IMG/VR virus record: IMGVR_UViG_3300026531_000001
Coordinates: 16,754-80,753 of that record
DNA length: 64,000 nucleotides
Direction: 5' to 3' (one strand)
DNA from: a virus
Within the stretch, counting starts at the first letter, position 1; every line of letters begins with the position of its first letter. Made by a program: the position numbers and the translations under genes. Positions 6,037 to 61,198 of the stretch are shown here, in pieces. Under the pieces are notes generated by a model that did not search any database, was not told where the DNA came from, and worked only from the letters and a program-made list of their open reading frames with translations.

Positions 6037-6058
6037 AGCCGACTACGGCGGCTAGGGT
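6037..6058 (+). promoter_or_regulatory. Late promoter motif (weak upstream box)
   Basis: TAGGGT-N6-ATG; upstream GCCG at N11. Confidence 0.5.
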
Positions 6059-6064
6059 ACCCCT

Positions 6065-6772
6065 ATGGCAGATCCCACTCCCCTGACTAACCCGGGCCAG
6101 GATCATGTAGTCGTAACGCTGCCCCTGCAATCTGCGGCAGGAGTGGATGAGACAACTACATCCGGGCGACAGTGGCGCCTCCCCCCGTGGCTGCCGCTCA
6201 AGGGGATCACGGCGGACCTCATGGACGCCCTCGACGCGGGTCTGCAGCGCGTGGACCTGGGGGCTCTAGACCAGCTCGACGTACAAACGGCTACCTGGGA
6301 GTGGCTGGACTACCACGCGCGCCTCTATGGGCTCGAGCCCCGCTTCCCGGGTGAGGCCGACGCAGTATTGCGCCAGCGCATCCTGGGCGAGCTGCGGCTG
6401 CCACGCACTACTCCTGAGGCCATCGAGACCGCCATCGAAATGGCCTTCCCGGGCACCACGGCCACCGTCTTCGACTGGACCACCGTCGAGACCAAGGGTG
6501 GGTACACCATCCGGCGATGGGACGGCACCTACCACTGGGACGGCGCCGTCAACTTCAACCCCGGGGGGCCCTATGAAAACTTGCGTTACTACCTTGGCGT
6601 ATTGATAGTGCGGCTCGAGGGCGGCCCCTACGACCTCGAGGTGGTGCGGAGCATTGTGGACCGCTTCCGTCCCGCCGGGGCGCTGCCGCATTACGAGGTC
6701 CTGGGCTCGAGCACCATCCCGCTCGACGGCACCCGTATCCTCAACGGCAACTGGGTGCTCAACTCAACCTGA
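6065..6772 (+). CDS. Baseplate wedge protein (P2 gpI/Mu gp48-like)
   Basis: ATWEWLDYHARLYGL...GEADAVLRQRI and VDRFRPAG motifs; precedes fibre genes. Confidence 0.75.
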   Translation: MADPTPLTNPGQDHVVVTLPLQSAAGVDETTTSGRQWRLPPWLPLKGITADLMDALDAGLQRVDLGALDQLDVQTATWEWLDYHARLYGLEPRFPGEADAVLRQRILGELRLPRTTPEAIETAIEMAFPGTTATVFDWTTVETKGGYTIRRWDGTYHWDGAVNFNPGGPYENLRYYLGVLIVRLEGGPYDLEVVRSIVDRFRPAGALPHYEVLGSSTIPLDGTRILNGNWVLNST

Positions 6773-6791
6773 CCGCGCGCGTGAATAGGGT
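6770..6791 (+). promoter_or_regulatory. Late promoter motif
   Basis: TGACCG-N10-TAGGGT-N6-ATG. Confidence 0.75.
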
Positions 6792-6797
6792 GGCGGC

Positions 6798-7823
6798 ATG
6801 GCACTGACCGGCGACCCCAATGGGACTATGAGCCTGGAGCTCTACGAGGTCCAGACCACGGACCCCGTACATCCCAGCATGGTGAACCCCCAGCTACAAA
6901 TGCTGGTGACGAACGACGCCGTGTTGAAGAAGCGACTCGACGTTATCGAGGCGGCCGGCGTGCTGGCGCTTCCAGGCCGCGTGAGCGCGCTCGAGGCCAT
7001 CAACGCCGAGACCCGGCTGACCGCGCTTGAGGCGGTAAATGCCGGCACCCGCTTGGACGCGCTCGAAGCGGTGCGCGCGAACGACCGCCTCAACGTCCTC
7101 GAGGGAGCCGTAAACACGCTGGACGGCCGCATCTCCGACCTGGAGGCCATAGATGCCGACGCGCGACTGGATGCGCTCGAGCAGGCGCAGGGGGCCACTA
7201 TGGTCTACACCAGCAGTCCGCCCCTGGACGCCGCAATCGGGGCGCGCTGGCTTCGCCCCTTCAATGGCACGATCATCACGCTCACCAAAGCACGCGTAGA
7301 GGGAGGGCGTAACGTCTGGGTCACGGAGCCGCAGGCGATCAGCCTGCACGCGGCTTCGATCGGCACCGACGCGGGCGTGAGCGACCGTTGGGCGCTTCCG
7401 GGCAGCATGTTCGGCATGACCGTAAACCGCGCCATTGCCACCCGCATCAGATACAAATACACGGTGCAGGCGCTAGGTGTGGGGATGGACTATCGGGCTC
7501 GAGCGTGGTGGCGCGTTCCCGGGGGCGCGTCGCCGAAGGGTCGCGGCTCCAGCTCGGGTGTAGACCCCGGAGACGAAGGGGCGCCGAACAACACCTCAGG
7601 AGCCACCCTGGTCCTCAACGCCACTGCCAGCGGTTTTCAAAACCACCTCATAGATCATGAGCAGGGCGAATACACCGTAGACTCGCTCACGCCCCTGACT
7701 CCTGGCCTACAGATCTGGGTGCAGGCATGGCGCGACACGGCAGGGTGGGGGTCCGACAACAACATCCGCGGTAACACACAGGTATTCCTAGACGTGAGCT
7801 TCATAGTGGAGCTGCTGCAGTAA
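6798..7823 (+). CDS. Tail fibre protein with 12-aa coiled-coil repeats
   Basis: TTDPVH..VNPQLQMLVTNDAVLK fibre N-terminus; RLxALEAxNAxx repeats. Confidence 0.7.
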   Translation: MALTGDPNGTMSLELYEVQTTDPVHPSMVNPQLQMLVTNDAVLKKRLDVIEAAGVLALPGRVSALEAINAETRLTALEAVNAGTRLDALEAVRANDRLNVLEGAVNTLDGRISDLEAIDADARLDALEQAQGATMVYTSSPPLDAAIGARWLRPFNGTIITLTKARVEGGRNVWVTEPQAISLHAASIGTDAGVSDRWALPGSMFGMTVNRAIATRIRYKYTVQALGVGMDYRARAWWRVPGGASPKGRGSSSGVDPGDEGAPNNTSGATLVLNATASGFQNHLIDHEQGEYTVDSLTPLTPGLQIWVQAWRDTAGWGSDNNIRGNTQVFLDVSFIVELLQ

Positions 7824-7834
7824 CGGAGGCCCTC

Positions 7835-8707: not shown

Positions 8708-8729
8708 TGACGGCTACAGACCTGAAGGT
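8708..8729 (+). promoter_or_regulatory. Late promoter motif with weakened -10 (holin)
   Basis: TGACGG-N10-GAAGGT-N6-ATG. Confidence 0.6.
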
Positions 8730-8735
8730 GCGGGC

Positions 8736-9185
8736 ATGGAACGCCTCACCGCCTTCATTCTCTCGATCGCCGACAGCTTGAGCCGCCTCACCGACCTGCT
8801 ACTCATCAAACTGATCGTAGGGGTACTGATCTGGGTATATTCCCCATGGCGAGAGGCGTACGGCATTTTAGGTGCCCTTGTCGCCCTCGACTTCCTTACC
8901 GGCGTGGTAGCCGCCCGGCACAGGGGGCGCCACATCACCAGCGCCATCATGGCCACCAAGACCGGCGCCAAGCTGGTGGTCTATGGTACCGCCCTGGCCG
9001 CAATCAATCTGGCTGAGCGCGGTGTCGGCCTCGGAGCCCTATTCACGAGCGTAGGCCTAGGCATGCTGATAGTGACCGAGGCCCTTTCCATCCTGGAAAA
9101 CCTGCAACTCATCTATCCCGATCTACCCATTCTGCAACGCCTCGAGGCCATGCTACGAGATCGCGCACCGAGGTCCGACGTTTAG
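8736..9185 (+). CDS. Holin (Phage_holin_4_1-like)
   Basis: Several hydrophobic segments, DFLTGV...ITS and EALSILENL motifs. Confidence 0.8.
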   Translation: MERLTAFILSIADSLSRLTDLLLIKLIVGVLIWVYSPWREAYGILGALVALDFLTGVVAARHRGRHITSAIMATKTGAKLVVYGTALAAINLAERGVGLGALFTSVGLGMLIVTEALSILENLQLIYPDLPILQRLEAMLRDRAPRSDV

Positions 9186-9190: not shown

Positions 9191-9212
9191 TGACCACCGC
9201 CGTTTCTACGGT
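9191..9212 (+). promoter_or_regulatory. Late promoter motif
   Basis: TGACCA-N10-TACGGT-N6-ATG. Confidence 0.75.
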
Positions 9213-9218
9213 GGCGGC

Positions 9219-9701
9219 ATGGCAAAGCGACTGAAAAACCCCCCTGGTACTCATACTGAGTTTCTCAAGCAACTCGAGCAAAGCATTAAGGAGGCCCATC
9301 TGGACGGCACCCCGGGCGGCATCCACGCCTTCATTCCCGGCACCCCCGCCGCAGACGCCATAATGTACATTTACGTTCCCACCGAGCGGGTGAAAATCCC
9401 GGCAAACGGCAACCACTTCATTTACGCCGATACGCCGCCGCAAAACGACTGGACCGCCAGCATCGAAGGCGCCAGCGGGATCATAGTAGCCGGCATTCAG
9501 GCTGGCCAGGACGTGGGCAGCTTCGACTTTCCTATGGGCGACGCCTACCTCGAGCCGGGCCAACCCCTGGTGATACTGGCACCGTCTACCGCCGACAGCG
9601 AAATCAAGGACATCGCAATCGCCATTGAGGTCCAGCGGGCCGAGCCCGGCGAAGGTCCTGCGGACGGCGGGCTTGGCGGGGTCGGCGTCATAGTCATGTA
9701 G
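9219..9701 (+). CDS. Hypothetical late protein
   Basis: 160-aa ORF preceded by the late promoter motif. Confidence 0.55.
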   Translation: MAKRLKNPPGTHTEFLKQLEQSIKEAHLDGTPGGIHAFIPGTPAADAIMYIYVPTERVKIPANGNHFIYADTPPQNDWTASIEGASGIIVAGIQAGQDVGSFDFPMGDAYLEPGQPLVILAPSTADSEIKDIAIAIEVQRAEPGEGPADGGLGGVGVIVM

Positions 9702-9703: not shown

Positions 9704-10429
9704 ATGGACCCCACGACAGCCCTCCAGGACAAGGTGCTCCGCATGGTGCACGCCTTCGAGGGTGGGCACCTGGCCGGCAACTTCGACGGACAGGTGCTCT
9801 CCTGGGGGCCGCTGCAGTGGAACCTTGGGCAGGGGACCCTCGGGCCGGTGCTGCAGCGCATCGTGGAGCTCGAGCCCGAAGCGGCCGCGCGGATCATGGG
9901 TGAAGAGTTCGCCGAAGCTGCGCGCGCAGGCAACCTGGCCATGGTCCGCTTCGCCCGGGCGCGCATCCTCGACCACCGGGGCCGCCCGAAGGCCGAGTGG
10001 CGGGACGCCTTCCGCAGGCTGGGCGAGCTCGAGGGCACGCACCGGGCCTTCCGTGAGGCCGCCCAGCCCTACCTCAAACGCGGGCAGCGCCTCGCTGAGG
10101 CCCTGGGATTCGAGACCGAACGCGGCTACGCCCTGGGCGTGGACGTGGCGGTGCAGAACGGCGCCCCCCGGCGCGACCACATCCGCGAGTACCGGCGCCG
10201 CCTGGGGAGCGGCAAGCGCTACCCCATGGAGTGGCAGCGGCTGAAACTCTTCGCCCACGTGGTCGCCGACGCCGCCAACCCGCGCTGGCACGACGACGTG
10301 CTGAGCCGCAAGCTCACCATCGCCGTGGGACGCGGCCGGGTGCACGGCAAGGACTACGTGCTCGAGCGCGACTTCGGCATCAGCTACTGGCGCAAATGGT
10401 GGGAGGACCCCGACCGCCCCCGTGCGTAG
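9704..10429 (+). CDS. Endolysin (lysozyme-like peptidoglycan hydrolase)
   Basis: FEGG...GNFDGQVLSWGPLQWN and DVAVQNG motifs; lysis-cassette context. Confidence 0.7.
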   Translation: MDPTTALQDKVLRMVHAFEGGHLAGNFDGQVLSWGPLQWNLGQGTLGPVLQRIVELEPEAAARIMGEEFAEAARAGNLAMVRFARARILDHRGRPKAEWRDAFRRLGELEGTHRAFREAAQPYLKRGQRLAEALGFETERGYALGVDVAVQNGAPRRDHIREYRRRLGSGKRYPMEWQRLKLFAHVVADAANPRWHDDVLSRKLTIAVGRGRVHGKDYVLERDFGISYWRKWWEDPDRPRA

Positions 10430-10432
10430 GGT
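10411..10432 (+). promoter_or_regulatory. Late promoter motif
   Basis: CGACCG-N10-TAGGGT-N6-GGAGGTGAACATG. Confidence 0.7.
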
Positions 10433-10448
10433 GCCATAGGAGGTGAAC

Positions 10449-10721
10449 ATGAAGCGACTGATCTCGATCTTGCAGGCGCTAATCCAGGCCGCCGGTCTGG
10501 CCGTGACCATCGTGGAGCTGACCGCTGAGGGAACCGGCGAGAAGGGCAAGGCCAAGGAGGACAAAGCCGTCGCCCAGATGCGCGAGCTCTTCCCCCCGGA
10601 GATGCTGCCGGAGGCGTTCCGCGACAGCTACGACATCATTGCGCGCATGGTGATCCGCGCCATCGTCGCATTCTTCAACGCCACGGGTTTTTTCGAGAAG
10701 TCCGGCGCGCCGCCCAGCTAG
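10449..10721 (+). CDS. Small holin-like/lysis accessory protein
   Basis: GGAGG RBS; hydrophobic N-terminus, GEKGKAK and C-terminal IVAFFNATGFF; follows the lysin. Confidence 0.5.
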   Translation: MKRLISILQALIQAAGLAVTIVELTAEGTGEKGKAKEDKAVAQMRELFPPEMLPEAFRDSYDIIARMVIRAIVAFFNATGFFEKSGAPPS

Positions 10722-10870: not shown

Positions 10871-11260
10871 ATGATAAAGCACCTTATCGCCCCATTGGTG
10901 CTGGCGGCTGGCCTCGCTTGGGCCTCGAGTCCTGATGCGGCCGGTTGGACTGGCTGGGATGTGGAGCTCGGGTGGGAGTGGAGCAACCCCGCCCCGGCCA
11001 TCACGCAGCCGCCAGACAGCCGCATGCCCTTCTCAGGGCATTATTTGCGCCTGGACGCCTACTATTTGCTGGGATCGAGCTGGGGCGTGGACGTTTACCT
11101 CATGCCGCAGGCCGCTTTCTATCCGGGCTCGCTAGGCCGTTCCTGGATAGGGATCCAAGCGCTGGCGGACAGTCCCGATATAACCCTGGGCGTTGAGGCC
11201 CAGTACCAACCCGCAGGCACCTACGTGTTCCGCGCCTATGTACGCCTGGGGGGACGGTAA
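10871..11260 (+). CDS. Secreted/outer-membrane beta-strand protein
   Basis: Signal peptide MIKHLIAPLVLAAGLAWA; alternating aromatic strands. Confidence 0.55.
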   Translation: MIKHLIAPLVLAAGLAWASSPDAAGWTGWDVELGWEWSNPAPAITQPPDSRMPFSGHYLRLDAYYLLGSSWGVDVYLMPQAAFYPGSLGRSWIGIQALADSPDITLGVEAQYQPAGTYVFRAYVRLGGR

Positions 11261-12726
11261 TGGCCGGGCCTAAGCGACCCAAGTGGCTCACCCCTGAGCT
11301 CGAGCAGGCCGCCCGGGCGTACCTGGCCGCCCACCCGGGCCACGGGCCCCAGTACCTGAAGAACCACCTGACCGCCAACGGCCATGAGCTCACCTACTAC
11401 CGCTCGCGGGAGCTCTACCACTTCGTCACCGCCTACACCCCGGAGGGCATGCCCGCGCCGGCGGCGCCGAAGCCACCAGCACCCAAGGCGGCGGCCGAGC
11501 CGAAGCGCCCCGACGTGCGTTTCGAGGAGACCGCCGCGGGCAACGCGTCCCTCACCTACAAGGGCGAACGGCCGCTCAGCCTCGAGGACGTGCTGCGGCT
11601 GGCCCGGGTAGACACCACCGTGTGGGAAGTCGAGCGCTATGTGGTGAATACCTGGGAGATGGGCCGGGCCCACACGAAGAAATCGCTCGAGTGGGACGAC
11701 AGCCGCATGAGCGGCATGATCGAGGACGAAGGCGAGATCAAGAAGGCCCCCCTGTGGCAAATCAAGGTCTGGCTCCGGCGCAAGAAGGACGTGGACCTCA
11801 AGACCGTCTTCGAGGGGCTGATTGAGGACCTGGCCTCACGCGCTACGCCCCGGCCCACGGGAACGCCAGTACGCGTCAAGCGGCTCGAGCGCGACACCGG
11901 CTACCTGGCCGAGATCAGCGTCTACGACCTGCACGTCGGGAAGCTGGCCGCCATCGAGGAGACCGGCAACGCCTACGACACCAAGCGCGCCCTGCGCGTC
12001 TGGCAGGAGGCGGTGGCCTACCTGCTCGAGCAGGTGGCCCTCTACCCGCTCGAGCGGATCGTCATCCCCCTGGGGAACGACCTGTTCCATGTGGACACCC
12101 TCGACAACACCACCACCAAGGGCACGCGCGTGGACGTGGACACCCGCTGGCAGACCGCGTTCCGGCGAGCCGTAGCCCTTCTGACCGGCGACCTGATAGA
12201 CCGCGCCCGGGCCATCGCCCCGGTGCAGATCATCATGGTGCCCGGCAACCACGACCACCAGCGGACGTACTACCTCGGAGAGGTGCTGCGCGCCTACTAC
12301 GCCGCGACCCCCGACGTGGAGGTAGACAACGACCCCACGACGCGCAAGTACCTGCGCTGGGGGCAGGTCATGATCGGCTACACCCACGGCAATGAGGAGA
12401 AGCACGCCGACCTGCCGCTGATCATGGCCAACGAGCGCCCCGAGGACTGGGCCGGAACCCGCTACCGCGAGTGGCACGTCGGGCACCTGCACCGCAAGAG
12501 CGAGCGGGCTTTCCAGCCCCTCGCCGAGAACGGCGGGGTGCGGGTGCGGGTCCTGCCCTCCCTCTCGGGCACGGACGCCTGGCACCACCGGAAAGGCTTC
12601 GTGGCCAACCTGCGCAGCGCCGAGGCCCACGTATTCCACCGGGAGCGTGGCTACACCGCCATGTTCCCCTACTTCGCCGACCCCGCCCTGTACGGCGGGC
12701 TCGAGCACGAGGAGGAAACCGCATGA
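11260..12726 (+). CDS. Calcineurin-like metallophosphoesterase
   Basis: DLHVG, GNDLFH, PGNHD, THG and GHLH motifs. Confidence 0.8.
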   Translation: MAGPKRPKWLTPELEQAARAYLAAHPGHGPQYLKNHLTANGHELTYYRSRELYHFVTAYTPEGMPAPAAPKPPAPKAAAEPKRPDVRFEETAAGNASLTYKGERPLSLEDVLRLARVDTTVWEVERYVVNTWEMGRAHTKKSLEWDDSRMSGMIEDEGEIKKAPLWQIKVWLRRKKDVDLKTVFEGLIEDLASRATPRPTGTPVRVKRLERDTGYLAEISVYDLHVGKLAAIEETGNAYDTKRALRVWQEAVAYLLEQVALYPLERIVIPLGNDLFHVDTLDNTTTKGTRVDVDTRWQTAFRRAVALLTGDLIDRARAIAPVQIIMVPGNHDHQRTYYLGEVLRAYYAATPDVEVDNDPTTRKYLRWGQVMIGYTHGNEEKHADLPLIMANERPEDWAGTRYREWHVGHLHRKSERAFQPLAENGGVRVRVLPSLSGTDAWHHRKGFVANLRSAEAHVFHRERGYTAMFPYFADPALYGGLEHEEETA

Positions 12727-13079
12727 GGAAGTTCTACCGCCGCCTGCGCGCCAAGCTGGGCCTCTACCCCGAGGCCTACGTCGCGCGCGAGCTCGACCGG
12801 CGCGCGCAGGTCTACATGAGCGTGCGCAGCGCCTTTCTCAAGGGCCTCAGCGACCCCAACAAGTCCAGCGAGGAGCACGCGCACGTCGCAGCGGTCCTCT
12901 ACCGCGCTGCCGCCAGCTTCGACGAGCTGGTGGCCGAAGAGCTCGAGCTGGTGCAGGCCCTGGCACCGAACCTGATCGGCCTCACGGCCGGCATGGGCAC
13001 CGCCCCGGCGTTGATCGTCACCGGTAACCCGGCGGCGCAGGCGTACGCGCCGCCCGCGCGCTCGGGGGTGGAAGCGTGA
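12723..13079 (+). CDS. Hypothetical protein
   Basis: ATGA/GTGA translational coupling at both ends (start moved from 12471). Confidence 0.6.
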   Translation: MRKFYRRLRAKLGLYPEAYVARELDRRAQVYMSVRSAFLKGLSDPNKSSEEHAHVAAVLYRAAASFDELVAEELELVQALAPNLIGLTAGMGTAPALIVTGNPAAQAYAPPARSGVEA

Positions 13080-13720
13080 TCGCCCTCGACCTCGACGGCG
13101 TGGTCGCCCTGCTCACCCCTGTGGTGCTGCGGCGCTTGGCAGAACAAGTGGGCCTCGACCTCGACCAGGTGCGCTACTGGGACCCCGCGCATTACGACGA
13201 CCTGCTCGCCGAGCTGCCGGAGCCTTACCGCACTGAGGAGGTGGAGCGCATGGTCTCGGAGCTCTACTGGGACCCTGAGACCTACCGGCAGGCCATGCCC
13301 ATCCCCGGTGCGCTCGAGGCCGCCCAGTGGCTCGCCCGACGCAAGCTGCTCACCGCCTACATCACCCGACGCAAGTCCCACACCGAGGCCGTGACCAAAG
13401 CGTGGCTGCAAGAGCGCGGCTTTCCCCTGCGACCAGTGCACCACGTGGAGCGCCCGGCAACCAAGGCCGACGTAGCGGAGCGGATCGGGGCCCGGGTACT
13501 CGTGGACGACAGCCCCCGGGAAGCGCTCGAGTTCGCCGAGGCCGGCCTAGTGCCCATCTTGCTGGCGCACCGCTACAACCGGCACGTGGACGACCCGCGC
13601 GTCATGCGCGCGGAGGGCTGGCCGGCGCTGCTCGGGCTCTTGAAGGCCCTGCCCTTGGACTACCGCGAGCGGCGCGACCCGCTCGGGTACGGGAACAAGC
13701 GTGGGAGGAGAAACGGATGA
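13076..13720 (+). CDS. HAD-family 5'(3')-deoxyribonucleotidase-like phosphatase
   Basis: DLDGV, ITRR, K and VDD HAD motifs. Confidence 0.8.
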   Translation: MIALDLDGVVALLTPVVLRRLAEQVGLDLDQVRYWDPAHYDDLLAELPEPYRTEEVERMVSELYWDPETYRQAMPIPGALEAAQWLARRKLLTAYITRRKSHTEAVTKAWLQERGFPLRPVHHVERPATKADVAERIGARVLVDDSPREALEFAEAGLVPILLAHRYNRHVDDPRVMRAEGWPALLGLLKALPLDYRERRDPLGYGNKRGRRNG

Positions 13721-14529
13721 AGCAAGAAAGACTGATCGGCATCTCTGGCAAGGCTCGAGCGGGCAAGGACAGCTTCTACCGGCTGGTGCTCGCCCCCCGG
13801 GGCTACACCCGCATCGCCCTGGCCGACCCCCTGAAGGGGCTGGCGCTGGCGCTCGAGGCCCTGACCGTCCCCATGACCACCCCGGGGCTCATGGAACAGG
13901 TGGCCCGGTACACCACGGAGCTCGCTGAGCGCGAGAAGCGCACGCCGGAGCCCCAGGAGATCGTGGGCATCTACCTGAAGCCGGTGCTCTCGATGGTGGC
14001 CGAGCGCTACTATGCCTACTACGGCGCCCGGAAGGGACCGCGGGAGCGCCACCTGCTGCAGCACCTGGGTACCGAGATTGGCCGCAACCTGGACCCCGGG
14101 CTCTGGCTGATCCCGGCGCTCACCGAAGCCCGCCGCGTCCTGGCCGCCGGCGGCCGCGTGGCCATCACCGACGTGCGCTTTCCCAACGAGGCGTACGCCG
14201 TGCAGGGGAACGTCGAGGCTATGCGCCACTTCTATGAGGCCCACGAAGCCCTCGAGGGGCATGTGCTCGAGCCGGTGAAGCACGCCCTGACCCACACCTG
14301 GGACGAAGAGGGCGGCCTGCTGCCGCCCCCGGGCCTCGGGGCGGTGGTGCGGGTGGAACGCCCGGACGCCCCCGAGGTTCTGGACCCCGAGGCGCGGCAG
14401 CACGCCAGCGAGCGCATGGTGGACGCCATCGAGCCCGACTGGATCCTCACCGCCAACACGCTCGCCGAGCTCAAAGCGCGCGGCGATGAACTCTTCGGAG
14501 ACGCCGCAGGCTACCTAGCCGACGCCTAG
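13717..14529 (+). CDS. Deoxynucleoside monophosphate kinase (T4 gp1-like)
   Basis: GISGKARAGKD P-loop, ALADPLK, LQHLGTE, DVRFPNE and HASE motifs; start from ATGA overlap. Confidence 0.85.
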   Translation: MKQERLIGISGKARAGKDSFYRLVLAPRGYTRIALADPLKGLALALEALTVPMTTPGLMEQVARYTTELAEREKRTPEPQEIVGIYLKPVLSMVAERYYAYYGARKGPRERHLLQHLGTEIGRNLDPGLWLIPALTEARRVLAAGGRVAITDVRFPNEAYAVQGNVEAMRHFYEAHEALEGHVLEPVKHALTHTWDEEGGLLPPPGLGAVVRVERPDAPEVLDPEARQHASERMVDAIEPDWILTANTLAELKARGDELFGDAAGYLADA

Positions 14530-16665: not shown

Positions 16666-17167
16666 GCAACCACCCCCATACGGCCAGGCCGAGCGCGTCT
16701 ATGACGTGGGGCCAGTCACGACGTGCCAGATCCTGGAAAGCAGCCGCCGGCCAACCCTCGAGCTCGAGCGCCAGCCGGTTGGCGATGGCTTGGTCATCTT
16801 TGCGCACCTTGGGCACGCCGTAGGCGTCCCGGCGGATCATGGCAGCCCCTGAGCGCATGGCGGGTTTCCAGCGGGAGGCGTAGGTCTCGACCAAGGGCAC
16901 ATTGTAGACCGCAGCCAGGGCCTGGACGTTGCCGAGCACCTGATTGGCATAGGCGCCGTGGATGTTCGGGCGGCGACCCTGATTTTCCCAGCCCTCGAGC
17001 ACGACCAGGGTCGGGCGATAATCCCGAAACACTTCATGCAGTCGCTCAAGTGCCTCACCCCGGGGCACGGCCCCGAGCGCCAGAACCTCACGTCCATGCA
17101 GGACGGCATAGCCAGTGGTACCCCCAGGGTCTACGGCGAGAATGCGGGGAGATCGTCGTCTACTCAC
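16643..17167 (-). CDS. RuvC-like Holliday junction resolvase
   Basis: ILAVDPGGTTG, VVLE and HVIDAL motifs. Confidence 0.8.
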   Translation of the reverse strand: MSRRRSPRILAVDPGGTTGYAVLHGREVLALGAVPRGEALERLHEVFRDYRPTLVVLEGWENQGRRPNIHGAYANQVLGNVQALAAVYNVPLVETYASRWKPAMRSGAAMIRRDAYGVPKVRKDDQAIANRLALELEGWPAAAFQDLARRDWPHVIDALGLAVWGWLRERGARA

Positions 17168-17176
17168 GTCTCCCCT

Positions 17177-17198
17177 AGCGTACGGACGGGGGCCGTCA
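17177..17198 (-). promoter_or_regulatory. Late promoter motif (resolvase-terminase operon)
   Basis: TGACGG-N10-TACGCT-N9-GTG. Confidence 0.65.
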
Positions 17199-18374: not shown

Positions 18375-18836
18375 ATGCCGATGGAAAACGCCCTGAGAGT
18401 CAACACGTCGTTGAGCCCGGAGGTGCGCCCCGGGGCAGACCTGATCCAGCGCGCCCGCGAGCTCTCCCCTACCGAGGTCGCCCGCCGCGACCTGGCCCGC
18501 TACTACGCGATGCTCGAGCGGGCCCGGCGGTCGTTGCGCGGTCGGTTTTCGGCCCGCGAGCTCGAGGCCCTGGCCCATGCACTCGACTCGATGGCCGGCG
18601 TCGAGGCCCCCGAGCTCATCTACCTGGTGCCGGCGACGGTCGAGGAGGCAGTCGGCGAGGAGCGCCTGTGCGAGCAGGCCGGCCTCGAGGACTGCGGCGG
18701 CTTTCTCGAGCGCGTGCGGGGCCTCGACCTGGCCGAGCGGTACGCGCTGGTGGATGCGGTTGGGGTGTACCTGAGCCTCAAGCCAAGCGAGCGCAGCGCC
18801 GACACCTGGGGCGAGCTGGGGCTGCTCTCGAGCTAG
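18375..18836 (+). CDS. Putative RHH-type regulator (paralog of 28472-28915)
   Basis: VARRDLARYYAML...GRFS and ALVDA...WGELG shared with the 28915 gene. Confidence 0.6.
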   Translation: MPMENALRVNTSLSPEVRPGADLIQRARELSPTEVARRDLARYYAMLERARRSLRGRFSARELEALAHALDSMAGVEAPELIYLVPATVEEAVGEERLCEQAGLEDCGGFLERVRGLDLAERYALVDAVGVYLSLKPSERSADTWGELGLLSS

Positions 18837-19576: not shown

Positions 19577-19581
19577 GACCT

Positions 19582-19603
19582 ACCGTATGCCGCGATACCG
19601 TAG
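19582..19603 (-). promoter_or_regulatory. Late promoter motif (TerS-like gene)
   Basis: CTACGG-N10-TACGGT-N5-ATG. Confidence 0.65.
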
Positions 19604-19680: not shown

Positions 19681-19705
19681 GCGATTAGCGGTTGTCGAAC
19701 CGCGG

Positions 19706-21221: not shown

Positions 21222-21222
21222 G

Positions 21223-46534: not shown

Positions 46535-46556
46535 CGACCACGACGGCGTATAAGGT
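46535..46556 (+). promoter_or_regulatory. Late promoter motif (DarB-like operon)
   Basis: CGACCA-N10-TAAGGT-N7-ATG. Confidence 0.7.
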
Positions 46557-46563
46557 GGGCGCC

Positions 46564-46797
46564 ATGAAGGATGACGCCAAGCGCATACTGGCCGAGCTCC
46601 GCGCCGAGCTCGGCCGCGCGCGCATTGAGGAGGCCGCCGCCCGCGGTGCCGCCCGCGCCGTTGCGGAGCGGCACCAGGCCGCCGCCGCCGAAGCCGCCGG
46701 GGGCATCGAAGCGCCCCGCGGCAGCGCCCTCGAAGACGAGTACCTGGAGCACGTACTGAGACGCGGAACCGCCCGCGCACTGGAGGCAGCCGAATGA
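46564..46797 (+). CDS. Small Ala-rich late protein
   Basis: Leaderless behind a late promoter; ATGA-coupled to the DarB-like gene. Confidence 0.55.
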   Translation: MKDDAKRILAELRAELGRARIEEAAARGAARAVAERHQAAAAEAAGGIEAPRGSALEDEYLEHVLRRGTARALEAAE

Positions 46798-54095: not shown

Positions 54096-54117
54096 CGACC
54101 GCGACGGGCGCTAGGGT
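54096..54117 (+). promoter_or_regulatory. Late promoter motif (alarmone synthetase)
   Basis: CGACCG-N10-TAGGGT-N6-ATG. Confidence 0.75.
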
Positions 54118-54123
54118 GCGGGT

Positions 54124-54924
54124 ATGGAACGCACTCTAGCGCCTTCGTTCTCCCTTATCGAGCTCGCTCTCTACCTACTTGCCAAAGCGCAGGGCGCCCA
54201 TGCCATGCGCGTTCTTCCCAGCGGCCGCCTGATGGTGCGGGTCAAGACGCCTCAGGGTCGGAAGTGGGTTCCCCATACCGCCCCTGAGGTCGAGCAGCAC
54301 ATTGACCAGCACCTGCATCCAATCGCGGAAGATGCGCATGCCCGGGCCGAAGCCCACCTTAAAGAGCTTATGCGGGGGCTGAACGTCGAGGTGGGCGGCC
54401 GGATCAAGGAGCCCTACAAAATCGCCGAAAAGATGGGGCGGCCAGGCAAGCAGCCGCGCCATTTCAACCGCCTGGGCGACACCGTGGGCCTGCGCGTCAC
54501 GGTGCACGATCCCGCGCACTTCGAGGAGGCCCACCGGCGCCTCAAGCAGTTAATGACTAACCCCCACCCCCACCTGAAGATCCTGGATCATGAGGTGCAT
54601 GACGGTTCGCGCGACGGCTACCGCTCGGTGCATTTCAACGGCATTGGCCATAAGGGGCAGCGGCTCGAGGTGCAGCTTCGGCACCACTGGCAGAACGTTT
54701 GGGCCGATCACGCTCACGACAACTTTTACAAGGACGACAACCTGCGCAAGCTGGTGCCGGACCATGAGCGTGAGGCCGTAAAGCGGGAAGGCGTACAGTA
54801 CATGAAGCAAGTCAGCGACCACCTGCACGCCAACGGTGGCAAGATCGGCGAGGGTTTCCCCGAGGCACCGCCGCGGATCAAGAAATACGGCCTCGAGTTC
54901 CCGTCCCACAAGCTGCAAAACTAA
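54124..54924 (+). CDS. RelA/SpoT-family small alarmone synthetase
   Basis: GRIKEPYKIAEK, DTVGLRV, GYRSVH and EVQLR...WAD..H motifs. Confidence 0.85.
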   Translation: MERTLAPSFSLIELALYLLAKAQGAHAMRVLPSGRLMVRVKTPQGRKWVPHTAPEVEQHIDQHLHPIAEDAHARAEAHLKELMRGLNVEVGGRIKEPYKIAEKMGRPGKQPRHFNRLGDTVGLRVTVHDPAHFEEAHRRLKQLMTNPHPHLKILDHEVHDGSRDGYRSVHFNGIGHKGQRLEVQLRHHWQNVWADHAHDNFYKDDNLRKLVPDHEREAVKREGVQYMKQVSDHLHANGGKIGEGFPEAPPRIKKYGLEFPSHKLQN

Positions 54925-55243: not shown

Positions 55244-56203
55244 TTAATCCCATCCGTCCAGGAGTTCACGGGCCATGTCCTCAGCCCATTTTGCGTAGAT
55301 CGCGGTCGTTTGCAACTGCGAATGCCGGAGCTGGCGCGCGGCCGTGTTCAGGTCGCCGGTGCGCTGGTAGATGTAAGTGCCACAGTAGTGGCGCAAGGCG
55401 TGGTACCCCTTATAACGCACCCCGGCCCGCTCGCACAGCGCCTGCAGGCGGCGCCGAATGCTGGCCGGCGTTCGCCACGGGAGCACGTGCTCGGCTTCGG
55501 GTTCGGCCTTACGCAGTGCACGCAGCGCCGCGCGCAACCCCTTGGGAATGAGGACGCTCGCCGTCTTCCCCCCTTTGCCGTCGCGGATCGTGATCCGCCG
55601 CGCCCCCAGGTCCACATCGTCCCAGCGCAGGCGCGCTGCTTCGGATACACGCAGTCCGCCCTGGGCCCCGAGCAGAACCATGGCGCGTTCGGCTGGGTTC
55701 GCCTCGCGGGTTAGCCGCTTGATCTCGTCGTCCTCATACGGGCGCCGCTTCTCATGGCGCGGGGTCGGGTCCCGCACCGTCGGCGCCAGGTCGAAGGGGT
55801 TGGCATGGGTGGCCCGGGCCCACTGGAGCGCCCGGTAGAAGGCGCGCACCGCCGCCCGGCGGTTGTTCACCGTCGCGGGGGCGTGCCGGCGCTGCAGGTG
55901 CCGCAGGTACTCGGCCCCCAGGTCCTCGGACGGGTCGAGCACCGCTTCGGCCAGCAGCTCGCCCTCGAGCCCCAGCCCGGCCAGGTAGTCAAGGAAGCTG
56001 TTCAGACCGGTTCGGTACGTCCGCAGGGTATGGGGGCTGGTGGCCGCCCCCGCCCGCCCCCAGGTCATGAGGTGGTGCTTGACCAGGGCCCACAGCCCGT
56101 CGCGGTCCCCCGCCTCGAGCATCGCCCGGACCTTCTCGGCCCGCCGCTCGGGCTTGACCGCCCCCCACGGAAACGCCTCGCCTCGGTAGCCGCCTCTAGC
56201 CAT
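55244..56203 (-). CDS. Tyrosine recombinase (XerC/D-like resolvase)
   Basis: SPHTLRTY, GLRVSE, GKGGK, HALRH and LRHS..TTAIY catalytic motifs. Confidence 0.9.
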   Translation of the reverse strand: MARGGYRGEAFPWGAVKPERRAEKVRAMLEAGDRDGLWALVKHHLMTWGRAGAATSPHTLRTYRTGLNSFLDYLAGLGLEGELLAEAVLDPSEDLGAEYLRHLQRRHAPATVNNRRAAVRAFYRALQWARATHANPFDLAPTVRDPTPRHEKRRPYEDDEIKRLTREANPAERAMVLLGAQGGLRVSEAARLRWDDVDLGARRITIRDGKGGKTASVLIPKGLRAALRALRKAEPEAEHVLPWRTPASIRRRLQALCERAGVRYKGYHALRHYCGTYIYQRTGDLNTAARQLRHSQLQTTAIYAKWAEDMARELLDGWD

Positions 56204-56209
56204 GTGACC

Positions 56210-56231
56210 ACCCTAGCGGCCAAGGTGGAAG
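56210..56231 (-). promoter_or_regulatory. Late-like promoter motif (recombinase), partial upstream box
   Basis: CTTCCA-N10-TAGGGT-N6-ATG. Confidence 0.5.
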
Positions 56232-57530: not shown

Positions 57531-57552
57531 CTACCGCTCACCCCTCTAGGGT
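57531..57552 (+). promoter_or_regulatory. Late promoter motif (protease)
   Basis: CTACCG-N10-TAGGGT-N6-GTG. Confidence 0.75.
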
Positions 57553-57558
57553 GGCAAC

Positions 57559-58479
57559 GTGGAGCGCACCGGGATCATCGTACAACTACCCCACATGGCC
57601 AAAGCCACAGATGTGGACGGGCGCCGCATCGTCTACTTCGAGGCGTCGCGTGACGGGGTGGTGGATCGTGAAGGCGACATCGTAGCCGCAGATGCGCTAT
57701 GGGCGTCGCGCAAGGTCTTCCTAGAGCAGGGGAACCTGGACCTCAATCACTGGTCGTGGCTCGGAAACCCAATCGGGACCGGCGCTCGGCCGGAATACGT
57801 CATCGGCCTACCCCTCGAGGTCAAGCGGCAGGGCCGCTCGATTTACGTCAAAGGGGAGATTTTCTCGAACCGGACGCCCCCGCCACCGGGCAGCGCCGGC
57901 GACTGGGCCAACTGGTTTTGGCACTCGATCACCCAGATGGACCCGCCGCAGCGCTGGTACCCGTCGGTTTTTGGCAGCATTAAGGCAGTAGAGCACGACA
58001 CTGTGCGTGGCAAGCGAGTCCGGCGCATTACGGCGGTTGAATGGTTCTCGGTCGGGTTCGCACAGCGCGCCCAACACCCTGAGCTCCCCCCGGTTTCGAC
58101 TGAACCCATGGGGCCGCTGGCAAAAGCGGTGCAGGTACGCCCCGATGAAGGCGCGCGTGCCGGGGTAGAGGTTATGGACCTGAGCACATTCGCCAAGGCC
58201 CTCACCGTGGGCGTGCCCGTAACGGACAGTGCCGCGAAGGAAGGCGTGCAGGCCATGACCCCCGAAAGCCTGGACCGCCGAGTGAAAAAGATCGTTCCGT
58301 ACGAAAAGCTGCGTGGGCGGGTACTGCGCGCGATCTTGCGGGGCAGGGTAGCCCCAAAGCGCGCCGTCATTGCCCAAGCCTTTCAGAAACTGGGTTGCGA
58401 TCCGGGAACAGCGCGTGAATATACCGAACGCCTGCTCCTGGAAGCGGCCGCCATGCATCCAGACGGCAAACGCCGCTAG
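57559..58479 (+). CDS. Prohead maturation protease
   Basis: IVYFEAS..VDREGDIV, GNLDLNH and YPSVFG motifs; upstream of scaffold and capsid. Confidence 0.75.
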   Translation: MERTGIIVQLPHMAKATDVDGRRIVYFEASRDGVVDREGDIVAADALWASRKVFLEQGNLDLNHWSWLGNPIGTGARPEYVIGLPLEVKRQGRSIYVKGEIFSNRTPPPPGSAGDWANWFWHSITQMDPPQRWYPSVFGSIKAVEHDTVRGKRVRRITAVEWFSVGFAQRAQHPELPPVSTEPMGPLAKAVQVRPDEGARAGVEVMDLSTFAKALTVGVPVTDSAAKEGVQAMTPESLDRRVKKIVPYEKLRGRVLRAILRGRVAPKRAVIAQAFQKLGCDPGTAREYTERLLLEAAAMHPDGKRR

Positions 58480-58482
58480 GGT
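58461..58482 (+). promoter_or_regulatory. Late promoter motif (scaffold-capsid)
   Basis: AGACGG-N10-TAGGGT, short leader ending GGAGGTGAACATG. Confidence 0.75.
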
Positions 58483-58510
58483 GCGGGCGTGAAAAACGAC
58501 GGAGGTGAAC

Positions 58511-59218
58511 ATGGCCGACCATGAAAAGCTGCTCCAAGAAGGCGAAGCCGCCCTGGAGCGGGCCGCTGAGCTCCTGGCGAAAGCTGCAGACCCGGAGCTC
58601 GACCCGGCCACGGCTGACGAAGACCCCGACAAGGACTTCGACGGCCTGGACAATCCCGAACCCGTAGAGGGTGACGGTAACGCCGGAGAGCAGCCCGATG
58701 AGGACGGCGACGACGACTGCCCCGAGGGTGAGGACTGCGAGAAGGATGAAGAGGGCGACGAGCCCGCAGGGGAGACCACCGAAGAGAGCGTGCCCGAAGA
58801 GGGCGAAGACGAGCCCATGGCAAAAGCGGCCGATGGGTTCGTGGACGCCACGCCGCTGCTCGAGGCGATTGACGCCAAGCTGGGGCAGCTCGCGGAGCTG
58901 ACCAAGCGCGTGCAGGCGCTCGAAGCCCACAACAACGCCCTGGTCAAGGCCCTTGTGGCCCAGAACGAAGGGCTGGGGGCCCTGGTGAAAGCGCACGGCG
59001 TGCTGGCCGACGACACCCCGCGGCGTCCCAAGTCGCGCCAGGTCTCGGTGCCGACCTCTGCGCCCAAGCTCGACCGCGAGACCGTGATGGCCAAGGCCGC
59101 GGAGATCGTGGACGATCCTGTGCGCATGGGCATGATCGAGCACTACTACAACATCGGCAACATCGAAGGCATGCTGCAACATCTAACCGCCGAAGAGCGC
59201 GCCAAGCTCGCCGGCTAA
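58511..59218 (+). CDS. Acidic scaffold protein
   Basis: D/E-rich segment plus coiled coil, between protease and capsid. Confidence 0.7.
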   Translation: MADHEKLLQEGEAALERAAELLAKAADPELDPATADEDPDKDFDGLDNPEPVEGDGNAGEQPDEDGDDDCPEGEDCEKDEEGDEPAGETTEESVPEEGEDEPMAKAADGFVDATPLLEAIDAKLGQLAELTKRVQALEAHNNALVKALVAQNEGLGALVKAHGVLADDTPRRPKSRQVSVPTSAPKLDRETVMAKAAEIVDDPVRMGMIEHYYNIGNIEGMLQHLTAEERAKLAG

Positions 59219-59236
59219 GCAAGAGGAGGAACCTGA

Positions 59237-60700
59237 ATGTACGGATTGGGAGAAGGTGGAGTCGTAAGCGGCGCAGGCATCCCCGCAGGGGGTATCCAGA
59301 CCTTTGAGGACTGGAATGCTTTCGCCAAGGCGATCCAGACCTCGACCTATGAGACCGACCACAGCCAGCTCACTGGCGTTGGCGGCCTGCGCGTCGAGAG
59401 CCTGGAAGCAACCCTCAAGAAGATCATCGAAAAGGAAGAGTCGTTCAAGCTCTTCCGCGCGCTGAAGCGCCAGCCGGTCACTAGCTCGGTGCATGAGTAC
59501 ACCGCACAGACCAGCATCGGCGGGCAGCCTGGCGGCGCGTTCAACTCCGAAACCGGGCCGATCAGCTCCGAGGTTGGCGAGTACGACCGCCGGATCACCT
59601 TCGTGAAGTACCTCATGACCCAGGCGCAGATCAGCCATGTGGCTTCGGTGCAGAAGACCATCGTGCCGCTGAAAGCGCGCGAAAACGCCAATGCCCTGCT
59701 GCGCCTCAGCCGCGCTGCCAACTGGTCCATGTACCAGGGCAATGCCGCTGTCGCACCAATGCAGTTCGACGGCATCGAGGCGATCCTGAGTGACTTCCGT
59801 GGCGGTAGCAACATCCGCGACCTGGAGGGCTCGAGCGACGTGGGTGCCATTGTGGACACCATCTTCGAGTCGTTCGCCACCGCCATGGGCGAAGGCAACT
59901 TCGGGAAGATCACCCATGTCCACATGGACCCGATCACCCAGGCCGCTCTCGACCGCTACCTCGACCCCGCCTTCCGCGTGAACCTGGACAACAACCCCGC
60001 CGGTCTGCAGCTGGGTGCTCCCGTCAAGGCGATCCGCACCAGCTTCGGTGACGTGGCCACCGAACAGGACATCTGGATCGAGGGCCCCGAGAACGCGAAG
60101 CCGGCCTACGCCAAGTATGGCAAGGTGCCCGACGACGCCCCCGGCACTCCGACCGTCAGCGCAGCCGCCAACGCAAGCGCCGGGTCTAAGTTTGACTCGG
60201 ACAAAGCGGGCACCTACTACTACGTAGTGGCCGCGATTGACGAGCGCGGCGTCGAGGGCATTCCCAGCACTGCGGTTTCGGCGGCCGTCGCTGCCGACGG
60301 CAGCGTTACCCTGACCATCACCCCCAACTCCGACCGCAAGCAGACCGGGTACGCCATCTATCGCTCGACCCAGGATCCCGCCACGGCCCCGGCCCTCGCG
60401 GACTACCGCCTGGTCAAGCGCATCCCCGCCAACCCCGATCGCACCGCGACCACCGTCTTCGAGGACAAGAACGAGGACATCCCCGGTAGCTCCAAGCTCT
60501 TCCTGCTCAACCGCGTGCCGGAGGCTATCGAGTGGATCCAGCTGCTCCCCGCTACGCAGTTCCCCCTCTACCCCACCAATGCGGCAATCATCCCCTGGGC
60601 GGTCCTGCTTTACGGCGCGCTGCAGCTCTCGATTCCCAACCACCACTTCGTCATCAAGAACTTCCTCCCGCCCCTGGCGAAGTGGAAGCCCTTTAAGTAA
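59237..60700 (+). CDS. Major capsid protein (A511/K/SPO1-like)
   Basis: K|AIQTSTY..GGLRVESLE, VHEYT, RRITFVKYL, QFDGI and VLLYGALQL motifs. Confidence 0.85.
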   Translation: MYGLGEGGVVSGAGIPAGGIQTFEDWNAFAKAIQTSTYETDHSQLTGVGGLRVESLEATLKKIIEKEESFKLFRALKRQPVTSSVHEYTAQTSIGGQPGGAFNSETGPISSEVGEYDRRITFVKYLMTQAQISHVASVQKTIVPLKARENANALLRLSRAANWSMYQGNAAVAPMQFDGIEAILSDFRGGSNIRDLEGSSDVGAIVDTIFESFATAMGEGNFGKITHVHMDPITQAALDRYLDPAFRVNLDNNPAGLQLGAPVKAIRTSFGDVATEQDIWIEGPENAKPAYAKYGKVPDDAPGTPTVSAAANASAGSKFDSDKAGTYYYVVAAIDERGVEGIPSTAVSAAVAADGSVTLTITPNSDRKQTGYAIYRSTQDPATAPALADYRLVKRIPANPDRTATTVFEDKNEDIPGSSKLFLLNRVPEAIEWIQLLPATQFPLYPTNAAIIPWAVLLYGALQLSIPNHHFVIKNFLPPLAKWKPFK

Positions 60701-60763
60701 GCCCTAGAGCTTGCTTGTACGGCCGTCCAGTAGGACGGCCGTTTCTGTTATGCTGGATGTGTC

Positions 60764-61168
60764 ATGGAATACAGAATTGAAGCTACTCAACCCGCCGTAG
60801 TGCAGTCGGTGCGCGAGCATGGCCACCACATGGTCAACGGCCTCAAGTTCGAGCTGAGGGACAACCGGGCAATCTCGGAGCCTGCCAATGACCAGAAGAT
60901 CAAGACCTTCCAAGGCGTCACGGGCTACCTGCTTGTGCGCGCTGAGGAGCCCTACGACCGTGTGAGCGACCTCAGCGGCGAAAAGATCGTGCTGCGTGAT
61001 GCGAAGGAGCCGGAGCCCGAGGCCGGCACCGAATCGGCGCCGGAACCGGCGGCCCCGGCCCCGGAGGAGACCACCGTGTCCGAGACCCCTGCCGAACCGG
61101 CCGCTCAGGAGTCCAAGCCGAAGCCCAAGCGCAACACCCGGAACAACACCCGGAAGCCGAAAAAGTAA
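60764..61168 (+). CDS. Hypothetical head-associated protein with low-complexity tail
   Basis: Follows the capsid gene; P/E/K-rich C-terminus. Confidence 0.55.
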   Translation: MEYRIEATQPAVVQSVREHGHHMVNGLKFELRDNRAISEPANDQKIKTFQGVTGYLLVRAEEPYDRVSDLSGEKIVLRDAKEPEPEAGTESAPEPAAPAPEETTVSETPAEPAAQESKPKPKRNTRNNTRKPKK

Positions 61169-61176
61169 CGTCCACC

Positions 61177-61198
61177 TGACCGCCTCGAGGGGTAGGGT
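61177..61198 (+). promoter_or_regulatory. Late promoter motif (neck genes)
   Basis: TGACCG-N10-TAGGGT-N6-ATG. Confidence 0.75.

Follow-up and report, generated by a model that had tools for sequence, protein, structure and literature searches.

Putative late promoters with a GACC box near -26 and a TAGGGT -10 element in a distant relative of the Lalka phages

Introduction

For Thermus phage Lalka27a, gene classes based on RNA sequencing (RNA-seq) and transcript 5' ends based on small RNA sequencing (sRNA-seq) were reported recently (bioRxiv 10.64898/2026.04.20.719267, April 2026). Sixteen late promoters identified with MEME consist of a TAGGGT hexamer and an invariant C at -25. Transcription start sites (TSSs) were located 6 nt past the hexamer for half of these promoters, most transcripts were leaderless, and the genes behind the promoters were late by RNA-seq and silent early. 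No gene for a sigma factor or an RNA polymerase was found, and the authors concluded that a phage-encoded factor alters the specificity of the host polymerase (bioRxiv 10.64898/2026.04.20.719267). Here, we describe putative late promoters of this kind in a viral genome of 80,753 bp, IMG/VR record IMGVR_UViG_3300026531_000001. The stretch analyzed, called the window, comprises 64,000 nucleotides and corresponds to bases 16754-80753 of this record; coordinates refer to the window unless stated otherwise.

A second system of similar geometry is the PafBC promoter of mycobacteria, tGTCgg(N10)tA(N3)T, with a -26 element at -23 to -28. PafBC recognizes the -26 element with one winged helix-turn-helix (wHTH) and contacts sigma region 4 with a second one (PMC8635444).

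Results

A two-part motif precedes late genes

An earlier reading made from the sequence alone (the sequence-only reading) had listed 16 sites with a TA[G/C]GGT-like hexamer shortly before a start codon, and in 14 of them an AC[C/G][G/A] box ending exactly 10 nt upstream of the hexamer. All 16 sites were found where they had been placed, and the box was confirmed in 14 of them. Site coordinates denote the first base of the box, and the hexamer begins 16 nt later; with the A of the start codon as +1 and a gap of 6 nt, the hexamer occupies -12 to -7 and the box as first defined -28 to -23. C-25 was kept in both exceptions, 6037 (AGCCGA) and 56231 on the minus strand (CTTCCA). The hexamer itself was TA[G/C]GGT in 13 of the 16 sites, the deviating ones being 8708 (GAAGGT), 17198 on the minus strand (TACGCT) and 46535 (TAAGGT).

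A scan of the whole genome for C-N12-TA[N]GGT with a start codon or a Shine-Dalgarno sequence behind it returned 18 strict sites. The short distance between hexamer and start codon was borne out: ATG or GTG followed 5-8 nt after the hexamer in 16 of the 18 sites, with a mode of 6 nt, and leaderless transcripts are therefore predicted. The other two (10411 and 58461) had a leader with GGAGG before the start codon. Furthermore, the box was found at unchanged spacing with weaker hexamers at four sites, namely GAAGGT at 8724, TACGCT at 17182 on the minus strand, TATGCT at 60749 and TAGAGT at genome position 5025. Sites absent from the original list were 60733 in the window and, outside it, genome positions 2348, 3459, 5025, 7516 and 13753.

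Observed numbers were compared with expectations from a first-order Markov model. The pattern ACS-N11-TASGGT occurred 14 times in the 80.7-kb genome (1.46 expected), and with RTG placed 5-8 nt downstream 13 times (0.21 expected), 12 of these on the plus strand. The longer pattern was also found 13 times (0.16 expected) in the sister phage G001, an IMG/VR genome of 79,030 bp that is collinear with the present one at 70-83% nucleotide identity, and 8 times (0.09 expected) in Lalka27a. When TASGGT was sought 5-8 nt before open reading frames (ORFs) of at least 100 codons, C-25 was present in 15 of 16 sites without having been selected for; the single site lacking it belongs to an antisense ORF with a TTG start.

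Positions outside the selection were conserved as well among the 18 strict sites: C-29 in 16, A-26 in 15, C-24 in 14, G or A at -23 in 18, C-22 in 17 and G-6 in 14. The only free hexamer position in the selection TA[ACGT]GGT, -10, was occupied by G (12), C (5) or A (1). An extended -10 TG was not seen at -15/-14 of these sites (-15: C 8, G 6, A 3, T 1; -14: C 7, G 6, T 4, A 1), nor was a TTGACA-like hexamer found at -35. Because the flanking positions that had not been selected are conserved, the box of the present phage is an asymmetric element of 8 bp, CyGACCGC, extending from -29 to -22 and centred at -25.5, with A-26 and C-25 as its core. The view of the sites as a promoter class without -35 box, with an element at -28 to -23 and mostly leaderless by sequence, holds. 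Altogether, about twenty copies of this predicted two-part late promoter, a GACC box near -26 and a TAGGGT -10 element, are present in the genome. The sites within the window are as follows.

6037-6067, plus strand: AGCCGA-N10-TAGGGT-N6-ATG before a 235-aa gene of the tail-fibre region; kept in G001.
6770-6800, plus strand: TGACCG-N10-TAGGGT-N6-ATG before a 341-aa gene; in G001 box and hexamer are kept and the spacer has diverged.
8708-8738, plus strand: variant TGACGG-N10-GAAGGT-N6-ATG before a 149-aa gene, homologue of Lalka gp28; the counterpart in G001 has the hexamer GAGGGT, that in Lalka27a reads TGACCC-N10-TAGGGT.
9191-9221, plus strand: TGACCA-N10-TACGGT-N6-ATG before a 160-aa gene.
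10411-10451, plus strand: CGACCG-N10-TAGGGT, a leader with GGAGGT and ATG at 10449, homologue of Lalka gp25; the leadered layout recurs in G001 and Lalka27a.
17165-17198, minus strand: late-type site with a weaker hexamer, TGACGG-N10-TACGCT-N9-GTG, before a RuvC-like gene followed by TerL; the G001 counterpart is TGACCG-N10-TAGCGT.
19574-19603, minus strand: CTACGG-N10-TACGGT-N5-ATG before the gene of a 247-aa zinc-ribbon and coiled-coil protein, homologue of Lalka gp7.
31403-31434, plus strand: CGACGG-N10-TAGGGT-N7-ATG before the portal protein gene.
40610-40642, plus strand: doubtful site TCACCG-N10-TACGGT-N8-GTG before a DNA methyltransferase gene; not alignable with G001.
41268-41299, plus strand: TTACCA-N10-TACGGT-N7-ATG before the gene of the 1742-aa virion helicase, homologue of Lalka Lvh.
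46535-46566, plus strand: CGACCA-N10-TAAGGT-N7-ATG before a 77-aa gene followed by a DarB-like 2311-aa gene.
54096-54126, plus strand: CGACCG-N10-TAGGGT-N6-ATG before a 266-aa cargo gene.
56201-56231, minus strand: CTTCCA-N10-TAGGGT-N6-ATG before a recombinase gene, homologue of Lalka gp60 (late).
57531-57561, plus strand: CTACCG-N10-TAGGGT-N6-GTG before the prohead protease gene.
58461-58513, plus strand: AGACGG-N10-TAGGGT, a leader with GGAGGT and ATG at 58511, scaffold-like gene.
60733-60766, plus strand: late-type site missed before, GGACGG-N10-TATGCT-N9-ATG, before a yqbF-like gene; counterparts are AGACGG-N10-TATTCT in G001 and GGACTC-N10-TAGGGT in Lalka27a.
61177-61207, plus strand: TGACCG-N10-TAGGGT-N6-ATG before the tail fibre protein gene, homologue of Lalka gp52.

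The genes downstream belong to the virion, packaging, lysis and cargo classes, as had been proposed, and their orthologues in Lalka27a are late. Late-type sites were absent from 19,700-31,400 and 31,500-40,600, where early, replication and partition genes are located. The TACGGT of the doubtful site at 40610 is enclosed by a hairpin with a 13-bp stem at 40606-40650 (CTCTCACCGCCCC ... GGGGCGGTGAGAG); this hairpin may be the terminator of the DUF5131 gene instead of a promoter, or both. At 60733, the box GGACGG overlaps the descending arm of a terminator-like hairpin at 60720-60745 that lies behind the capsid gene (GGCCGTCC..GGACGGCC), an arrangement kept in G001. A hairpin between box and discriminator was considered and dismissed on inspection, its arms being mirror repeats and not inverted repeats. 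A sigma-54 (-24/-12) reading was dismissed as well; the TSS in Lalka27a lies 6 nt after the hexamer.

An adaptor-type activator that acts on the host sigma-A holoenzyme at these late promoters is the explanation which we consider probable. The host sigma-A RNA polymerase would take TA(G/C)GGT as its -10 element (-12 to -7) and would initiate 6-7 nt downstream of the hexamer, at the first base (A or G) of the start codon. Most transcripts would therefore be leaderless. The phage-specific, non-palindromic box at -29 to -22 (CyGACCGC) would stand in for the -35 contact. Most likely, the box would be bound by a trans-acting protein from an earlier stage of infection, which would form a bridge to the polymerase in a manner akin to the 'sigma adaptation' by PafBC or the appropriation of sigma by T4 MotA/AsiA. 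Both the existence of such a factor and its origin from the phage are inferred. The sequence-only reading had likewise proposed an activator redirecting host polymerase to a -26 element. This was reasonable, and the element is indeed seen, but the idea had already been published for Lalka27a.

Occurrence of the box in five phage lineages

The source record carries direct terminal repeats, its completeness is rated 100% and its GC content is 65%. Among 50,697 phage records, the sole nucleotide match was the large virion helicase gene of Lalka8, Lalka27a and Lalka27b with 76% identity. About 45 genes were common with Lalka27a by tblastn at protein identities of 30-71%, among them TerL (71%), the major capsid protein (70%), portal (65%), sheath (65%), the Lvh helicase (58%) and the DarB-like protein (52%), furthermore baseplate, tail fibre, prohead protease and recombinase. 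Because of these shared proteins and the helicase match, the phage is placed here among the myoviruses of the Lalka group as a distant member, and it is regarded as temperate. The full phage was found in a single sequencing run, a hydrothermal-vent metagenome, which is the probable source sample; no RNA run containing the phage was listed. The host probably belongs to the family Thermaceae. The contig of G001 (JALVDI010000386.1) is filed within a 'Polyangiaceae' metagenome-assembled genome (MAG); this is probably a binning artefact and, therefore, no host was assigned from it.

G001 carries 18 sites at positions orthologous to those of the present phage. A-26 and C-25 were identical in each of 20 orthologous promoter pairs, and identity over these pairs amounted to 95% for the hexamer, 81% for the whole box, 68% for the 9-nt spacer and 49% for the upstream region. 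Judged by this conservation, the upstream element is a selectively maintained box of 6-8 bp and thus more than a single C.

Our own scan of Lalka27a (PQ109076.1) recovered the same 16 sites as published, with the consensus (t/g)GACC(c/g)-N10-TAGGGTg-N6-ATG. The two phages resemble each other in the TAGGGT -10 element, C-25, the lack of a -35 element, a start codon 6-7 nt after the hexamer and about 16-20 copies, which serve orthologous virion, packaging, DarB-like, helicase and recombinase genes. They differ in that the box of the present phage is longer (CyGACCGC at -29 to -22 versus (t/g)GACC(c/g)) and that its hexamer accepts C at -10 (TACGGT, 5 of 18). Additionally, the present genome of 80.7 kb comes from a hydrothermal-vent metagenome, is known from sequence alone, and has a ParA gene and not an integrase gene in the window. 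By these features, the promoters belong to the late promoter class of Lalka27a, found here in a different lineage. As this class was published for Lalka27a in 2026, its presence here is no discovery. New are the 8-bp box, the conservation in 20 of 20 pairs, the occurrence in five lineages, the 11-nt spacing in phage Cumys, the chance level in megaplasmids and the PafBC geometry.

The box was found in five phage lineages. In G003, a third relative of 60.8 kb (75% complete), xxAC(G/C)G-N10-TA(S)(S)(S)T precedes the portal, Lvh, protease and tail-fibre genes; the portal genes of both Lalka27a and G003 have the promoter type seen at 31403. In Thermus phage Cumys (PQ109079.1; TerL 55% identical), TGACCC-N11-hexamer-N6-ATG was found at 11 sites, the spacing being 11 nt and not 10. 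The Cumys hexamers are degenerate (TAGCGT, TACGGT, GAAGAT, CATTCT, GAAAAT), whereas TGACCC is constant; therefore, the box carries the specificity.

Record positions 8004, 13390, 17162, 20027, 26595, 29035, 36173 and 41304 of PQ109079.1, minus strand: example sites in Cumys.

A gagggc/gagggt discriminator recurs at the Cumys sites, and gagggc also occurs in G003. The distance between box and hexamer is 10 nt in Lalka8 and 11 nt in Cumys, although both phages infect T. thermophilus HB8; thus, phage-specific readers fit better than a single host factor.

L017 (IMGVR_UViG_3300025104_000005), a fragment of a more distant relative with a GC content of 60%, has orthologous late genes including Lvh behind extended -10 promoters of the type TGnTAnnnT (TGATAGCAT, TGATAGGTT), often with CCAGGG just upstream. 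The GACC box was absent from the L017 promoters of orthologous genes.

5270-5303 of L017: extended -10 promoter.
9680-9712 of L017: extended -10 promoter.
11200-11237 of L017: extended -10 promoter.

The motif is at chance level in host-like DNA

Four Thermaceae megaplasmids with a total of 1.1 Mb (pTT27 of HB27, pTT27 of HB8, pMESIL01 and pTHEOS01) were scanned for ACS-N11-TASGGT, with the reversed pattern as control. Fifteen matches were obtained as compared to 14 control matches, which corresponds to the chance level. The 5.4-Mb MAG containing G001 gave 46 matches and 71 control matches in the 5.3 Mb outside the phage contig, and 16 matches in the phage contig itself. The motif is thus about 15-fold denser in phages than in host-like DNA and at chance level elsewhere, where the background amounts to 0.9-1.4 matches per 100 kb.

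These results bear on two alternatives. According to the first, a host-encoded activator such as a WYL-type stress regulator binds the box, and the phage exploits a host regulon. The geometry is that of the PafBC system of actinobacterial hosts, and Thermus encodes WYL-domain proteins. The motif is, however, not enriched in the Thermaceae megaplasmids, phages that share a host differ in both the sequence and the spacing of the box, and late expression in a synchronous infection speaks for a product made by the phage. We regard a host activator as very unlikely.

The second alternative dispenses with any extra factor: the sigma-A holoenzyme would read the box directly, for instance as TGAC in the manner of a -35 element with an 11-nt spacer or via a different contact of polymerase and DNA, and timing would follow from template number or topology. 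The core (T)GAC(C) is similar to a portion of TTGACA, G-6 is conserved, and Taq and Tth polymerases use -35-less promoters with G-rich discriminators. Against this stands that -26 is out of reach of sigma region 4 in a normal holoenzyme, as is generally known from structures, and that A-26 and C-25, the most conserved bases here, are not the most conserved bases of a -35 element. Furthermore, the motif is not enriched in the 1.1 Mb of Thermaceae DNA, the Lalka27a genes behind the box are silent early although polymerase is present, and a spacing of 10 versus 11 nt in two phages of one host disagrees with a fixed polymerase contact. Direct reading by the holoenzyme therefore appears improbable, and the activator remains our preferred explanation.

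Candidates for the box-reading protein

The sequence-only reading had noted that no sigma factor was visible. In agreement, searches of six frames of the complete genome for Sigma70 r2, r4 and r4_2 (PF04542, PF04545, PF08281) returned nothing at E≤1, whereas control genomes were positive; very divergent gp55-like proteins could escape this search. A highly diverged phage sigma-like protein, comparable to T4 gp55 or SPO1 gp34, might still replace sigma-A and read both hexamer and box. The six hexamer positions are near-invariant in Lalka27a and strong in the present phage, which exceeds the TANNNT that sigma-A needs. However, apart from the negative domain search, no sigma-like match was obtained for the conserved candidates in PHROG, Pfam or PDB, and the hexamers of G003 and Cumys are less strict (TASSST or worse), with A-11 and T-7, the signature of sigma-A, being kept. 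We give hardly any credence to a replacement of sigma-A.

Turning to an activator, a six-frame search of the complete genome returned no WYL domain. Only three non-structural, non-replicative proteins are common with Lalka27a, those encoded at 22005-22652, 18833-19576 and 34909-35355. Sequence searches of PDB with these three candidates and with a profile of the two-helix-turn-helix (two-HTH) family gave no match.

22005-22652, minus strand: 215-aa two-HTH protein, second gene of the cro-like early operon; disfavoured candidate.
34909-35355 (region 34851-35355), plus strand: 148-aa zinc-ribbon protein, CxxCGR...GIGPxC, with its own TTGACA-N18-TAAGCT promoter.

Three phage proteins had been named as possible activators beforehand. 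Two of them, the multi-HTH protein (35687) and a protein of 478 aa (25210), are poor candidates; neither has a homologue in Lalka27a or Cumys, both of which use the box. The two-HTH protein (22005) is disfavoured: its orthologue in Lalka27a, gene 9, is late, and L017 encodes the protein without having the box. A hidden Markov model (HMM) of the family detected exactly one copy each in the present phage, G001, G003, Lalka27a, Cumys and L017, and the gene follows the cro-like gene in the first three. The family comprises 38 clusters at 50% identity; scans of metagenomes and IMG/VR with this family added only G003, L017 and L019.

A structural model of the two-HTH protein (pLDDT 92) shows an N-terminal HTH, a Tudor/SH3-like barrel and a C-terminal wHTH of the Xis/BldC type. 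Foldseek gave no match at E≤0.001 for either model of the protein. VIA-align yielded weak similarities, namely of the N-terminal HTH in the lower-confidence first model to ParB/Spo0J/KorB (Z 5.9-6.8), of the middle barrel in the high-confidence model to Tudor/SH3 folds (Z about 5), and of the C-terminal HTH in both models to Xis/BldC (Z about 5). Comparison of the barrel with P23-45 gp39 gave a Z of 4.3, no better than dozens of unrelated barrels. The L017 protein has an extra N-terminal wHTH. Family members of about 300 aa have a C-terminal Cys-rich tail, NPCxCxFW...CG...C.D, which was also seen in Cumys. The helix ARAHLxNALLxR is nearly invariant in 26 diverse members; this hints at a conserved partner and not at varied DNA targets. 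A box-type site, GGACGG-N10-TATTGT-N6-ATG, lies antisense to the two-HTH gene at 22478-22511 on the plus strand.

The 247-aa zinc-ribbon and coiled-coil protein (18833-19576, Lalka gp7) has its own late promoter, and gene 7 of Lalka is late. The gene for gp80, the Lalka27a homologue of the 148-aa zinc-ribbon protein, is early. The motif CxxC(G/N)R...GIGPxC of the latter protein was found once in each of four phages, the present one, G001, Lalka27a and Cumys (gene 10), but neither in the incomplete G003 nor in L017. The sole lead for this protein in ESM Atlas was DUF6011 with a score of 0.90. Because of its early timing in Lalka27a and its distribution among phages with the box, the 148-aa protein is weakly favoured as the best candidate, its binding of DNA or polymerase being putative.

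In its most specific form, our proposal would be a new, non-WYL adaptor of the Lalka-group phages of Deinococcota, which exerts PafBC-like sigma adaptation on sigma-A via the GACC box at -26, with the product of 34909-35355 as best candidate, maybe together with the HTH-Tudor-HTH protein of 22005-22652. This specific form is doubtful, although conceivable.

Early promoters, the immunity region and operators

That early genes have TTG-type -35 boxes at N17-N18 was confirmed before the cro-like gene, before 34909, and at 28954 and 18323 on the minus strand. The promoter before 34909 reads TTGACA-N18-TAAGCT, and TTGACA-N18 was also found at the two minus-strand positions. A Lambda-like immunity region is located at 22642-24843.

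22871-22899, minus strand: canonical early promoter TTGCCC-N17-TAAAAT of the cro-like gene, whose ATG follows after 7 nt; leaderless.
22917-22642, minus strand: cro-like gene.
22996-23628, plus strand: cI/LexA-like gene, divergent from the cro-like gene.
23601-24437: ParA gene.
24427-24843: gene for an Arc-like protein.

The ParA and Arc-like genes beside the immunity region suggest a plasmid prophage and not an integrating one. An inverted repeat, GTGTCC-N8-GGACAC, spans the -10 element of the zinc-ribbon gene promoter (34851-34895) and looks like an operator.

The GACC box itself could be the operator of a repressor. The -10-only promoters would then be intrinsically active, and late timing would reflect de-repression, either by titration during replication or by inactivation. 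In D. radiodurans, a bare TANNNT adjoining an ORF is sufficient for promoter activity, a configuration reported to be common in the phylum (PMC12340547). A protein at -29 to -22 would occlude the polymerase, and a box kept independently of the spacer is explicable by any DNA-binding protein. However, the box is a single asymmetric site of 8 bp and not the dyad typical of repressors, and operators of the immunity region look different. Furthermore, Cumys hexamers such as GAAGAT and CATTCT are too degenerate for a stand-alone -10 element, which implies positive help. Repression is thus an unlikely explanation of the box.

At 11260-14529, the exonuclease, nucleotidase and deoxynucleoside-monophosphate (dNMP) kinase genes lie behind late genes and lack their own promoter. 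Middle genes 22-18 of Lalka27a are reported to have the same unexplained arrangement (bioRxiv 10.64898/2026.04.20.719267).

Discussion

Several points weigh against an adaptor-type activator. TSS and late timing are carried over by analogy from Lalka27a to a phage that is represented by its genome sequence only. No known activator fold was recognized among the conserved non-structural proteins. The background scan covered megaplasmids and a MAG, and a small regulon with the same box may exist in the host chromosome. L017 serves the orthologous genes from promoters without the box, which is therefore not obligatory for this gene set. Finally, a bare -10 element next to an ORF can suffice as a promoter in Deinococcus-Thermus (PMC12340547), and the box could therefore be negative or modulatory instead of an activator site.

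The activator, which we continue to prefer, can be compared with known systems. The PafBC motif named in the sequence-only reading is correct (PMC8635444). Its geometry is identical to that found here, with a hexamer at -28 to -23, N10, TAnnnT and no -35 element. The box consensus differs, however (yGACCG here versus tGTCgg), no WYL or PafBC-like protein is encoded by the present phage, the host belongs to a different phylum, and a viral temporal switch would take the place of a DNA-damage regulon.

T4 middle promoters have a MotA box centred at -30 that is A/T-rich and acts with appropriation of sigma by AsiA. In both cases a phage activator, in ours a proposed one, would replace the -35 contact while a sigma-70-type -10 element is retained. 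Unlike the T4 promoters, the class described here is late and not middle, and no MotA or AsiA homologue was recognized.

For P1, Lehnherr et al. are said to have described, in 1992, late promoters with a 9-bp inverted repeat near -22. Common to both systems are many dispersed late promoters with a -10 and a conserved element in the spacer region, and no -35 element. P1 uses Lpa, a phage activator that binds RNA polymerase, whereas its counterpart here is a proposed one. The present phage also has P1-like DarB and Ulx cargo in common with P1, and it has a ParA gene. In contrast to the 9-bp inverted repeat near -22, its box lacks symmetry and has its centre at -25.5. The two leading candidates, the only proteins compared by tblastn with the 50,697 phage records, matched Lalka phages only, and this search thus yielded no Lpa-like candidate.

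Extended -10 promoters, TGnTAnnnT, serve the middle and late genes of P23-45. The TG at -15/-14 that defines this class is absent here and present in the relative L017. Promoters with a '-10 adjacent to the ORF' in Deinococcus-Thermus (PMC12340547) share with the present sites TANNNT 6-7 nt before the start codon, leaderless transcripts and the frequent absence of a -35 element, and the middle and late promoters of the Thermus phage phiYS40 are, as cited in the Lalka27a preprint, -35-less and leaderless (bioRxiv 10.64898/2026.04.20.719267). These promoters differ in that an upstream box is not conserved and the hexamer is not fixed as TAGGGT.

The distance between box and -10 element is fixed within one phage and different between phages of one host, and the geometry of the box is exactly that of the only -26-element system that has been solved structurally. 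Furthermore, very few conserved non-structural proteins come into question as readers of the box. Structural work on bacterial transcription relies heavily on the polymerase of Thermus; if a new adaptor acts on it, this adaptor would be directly amenable to cryo-electron microscopy (cryo-EM). Additionally, the promoters are compact, strong and leaderless parts for the genetics of thermophiles.

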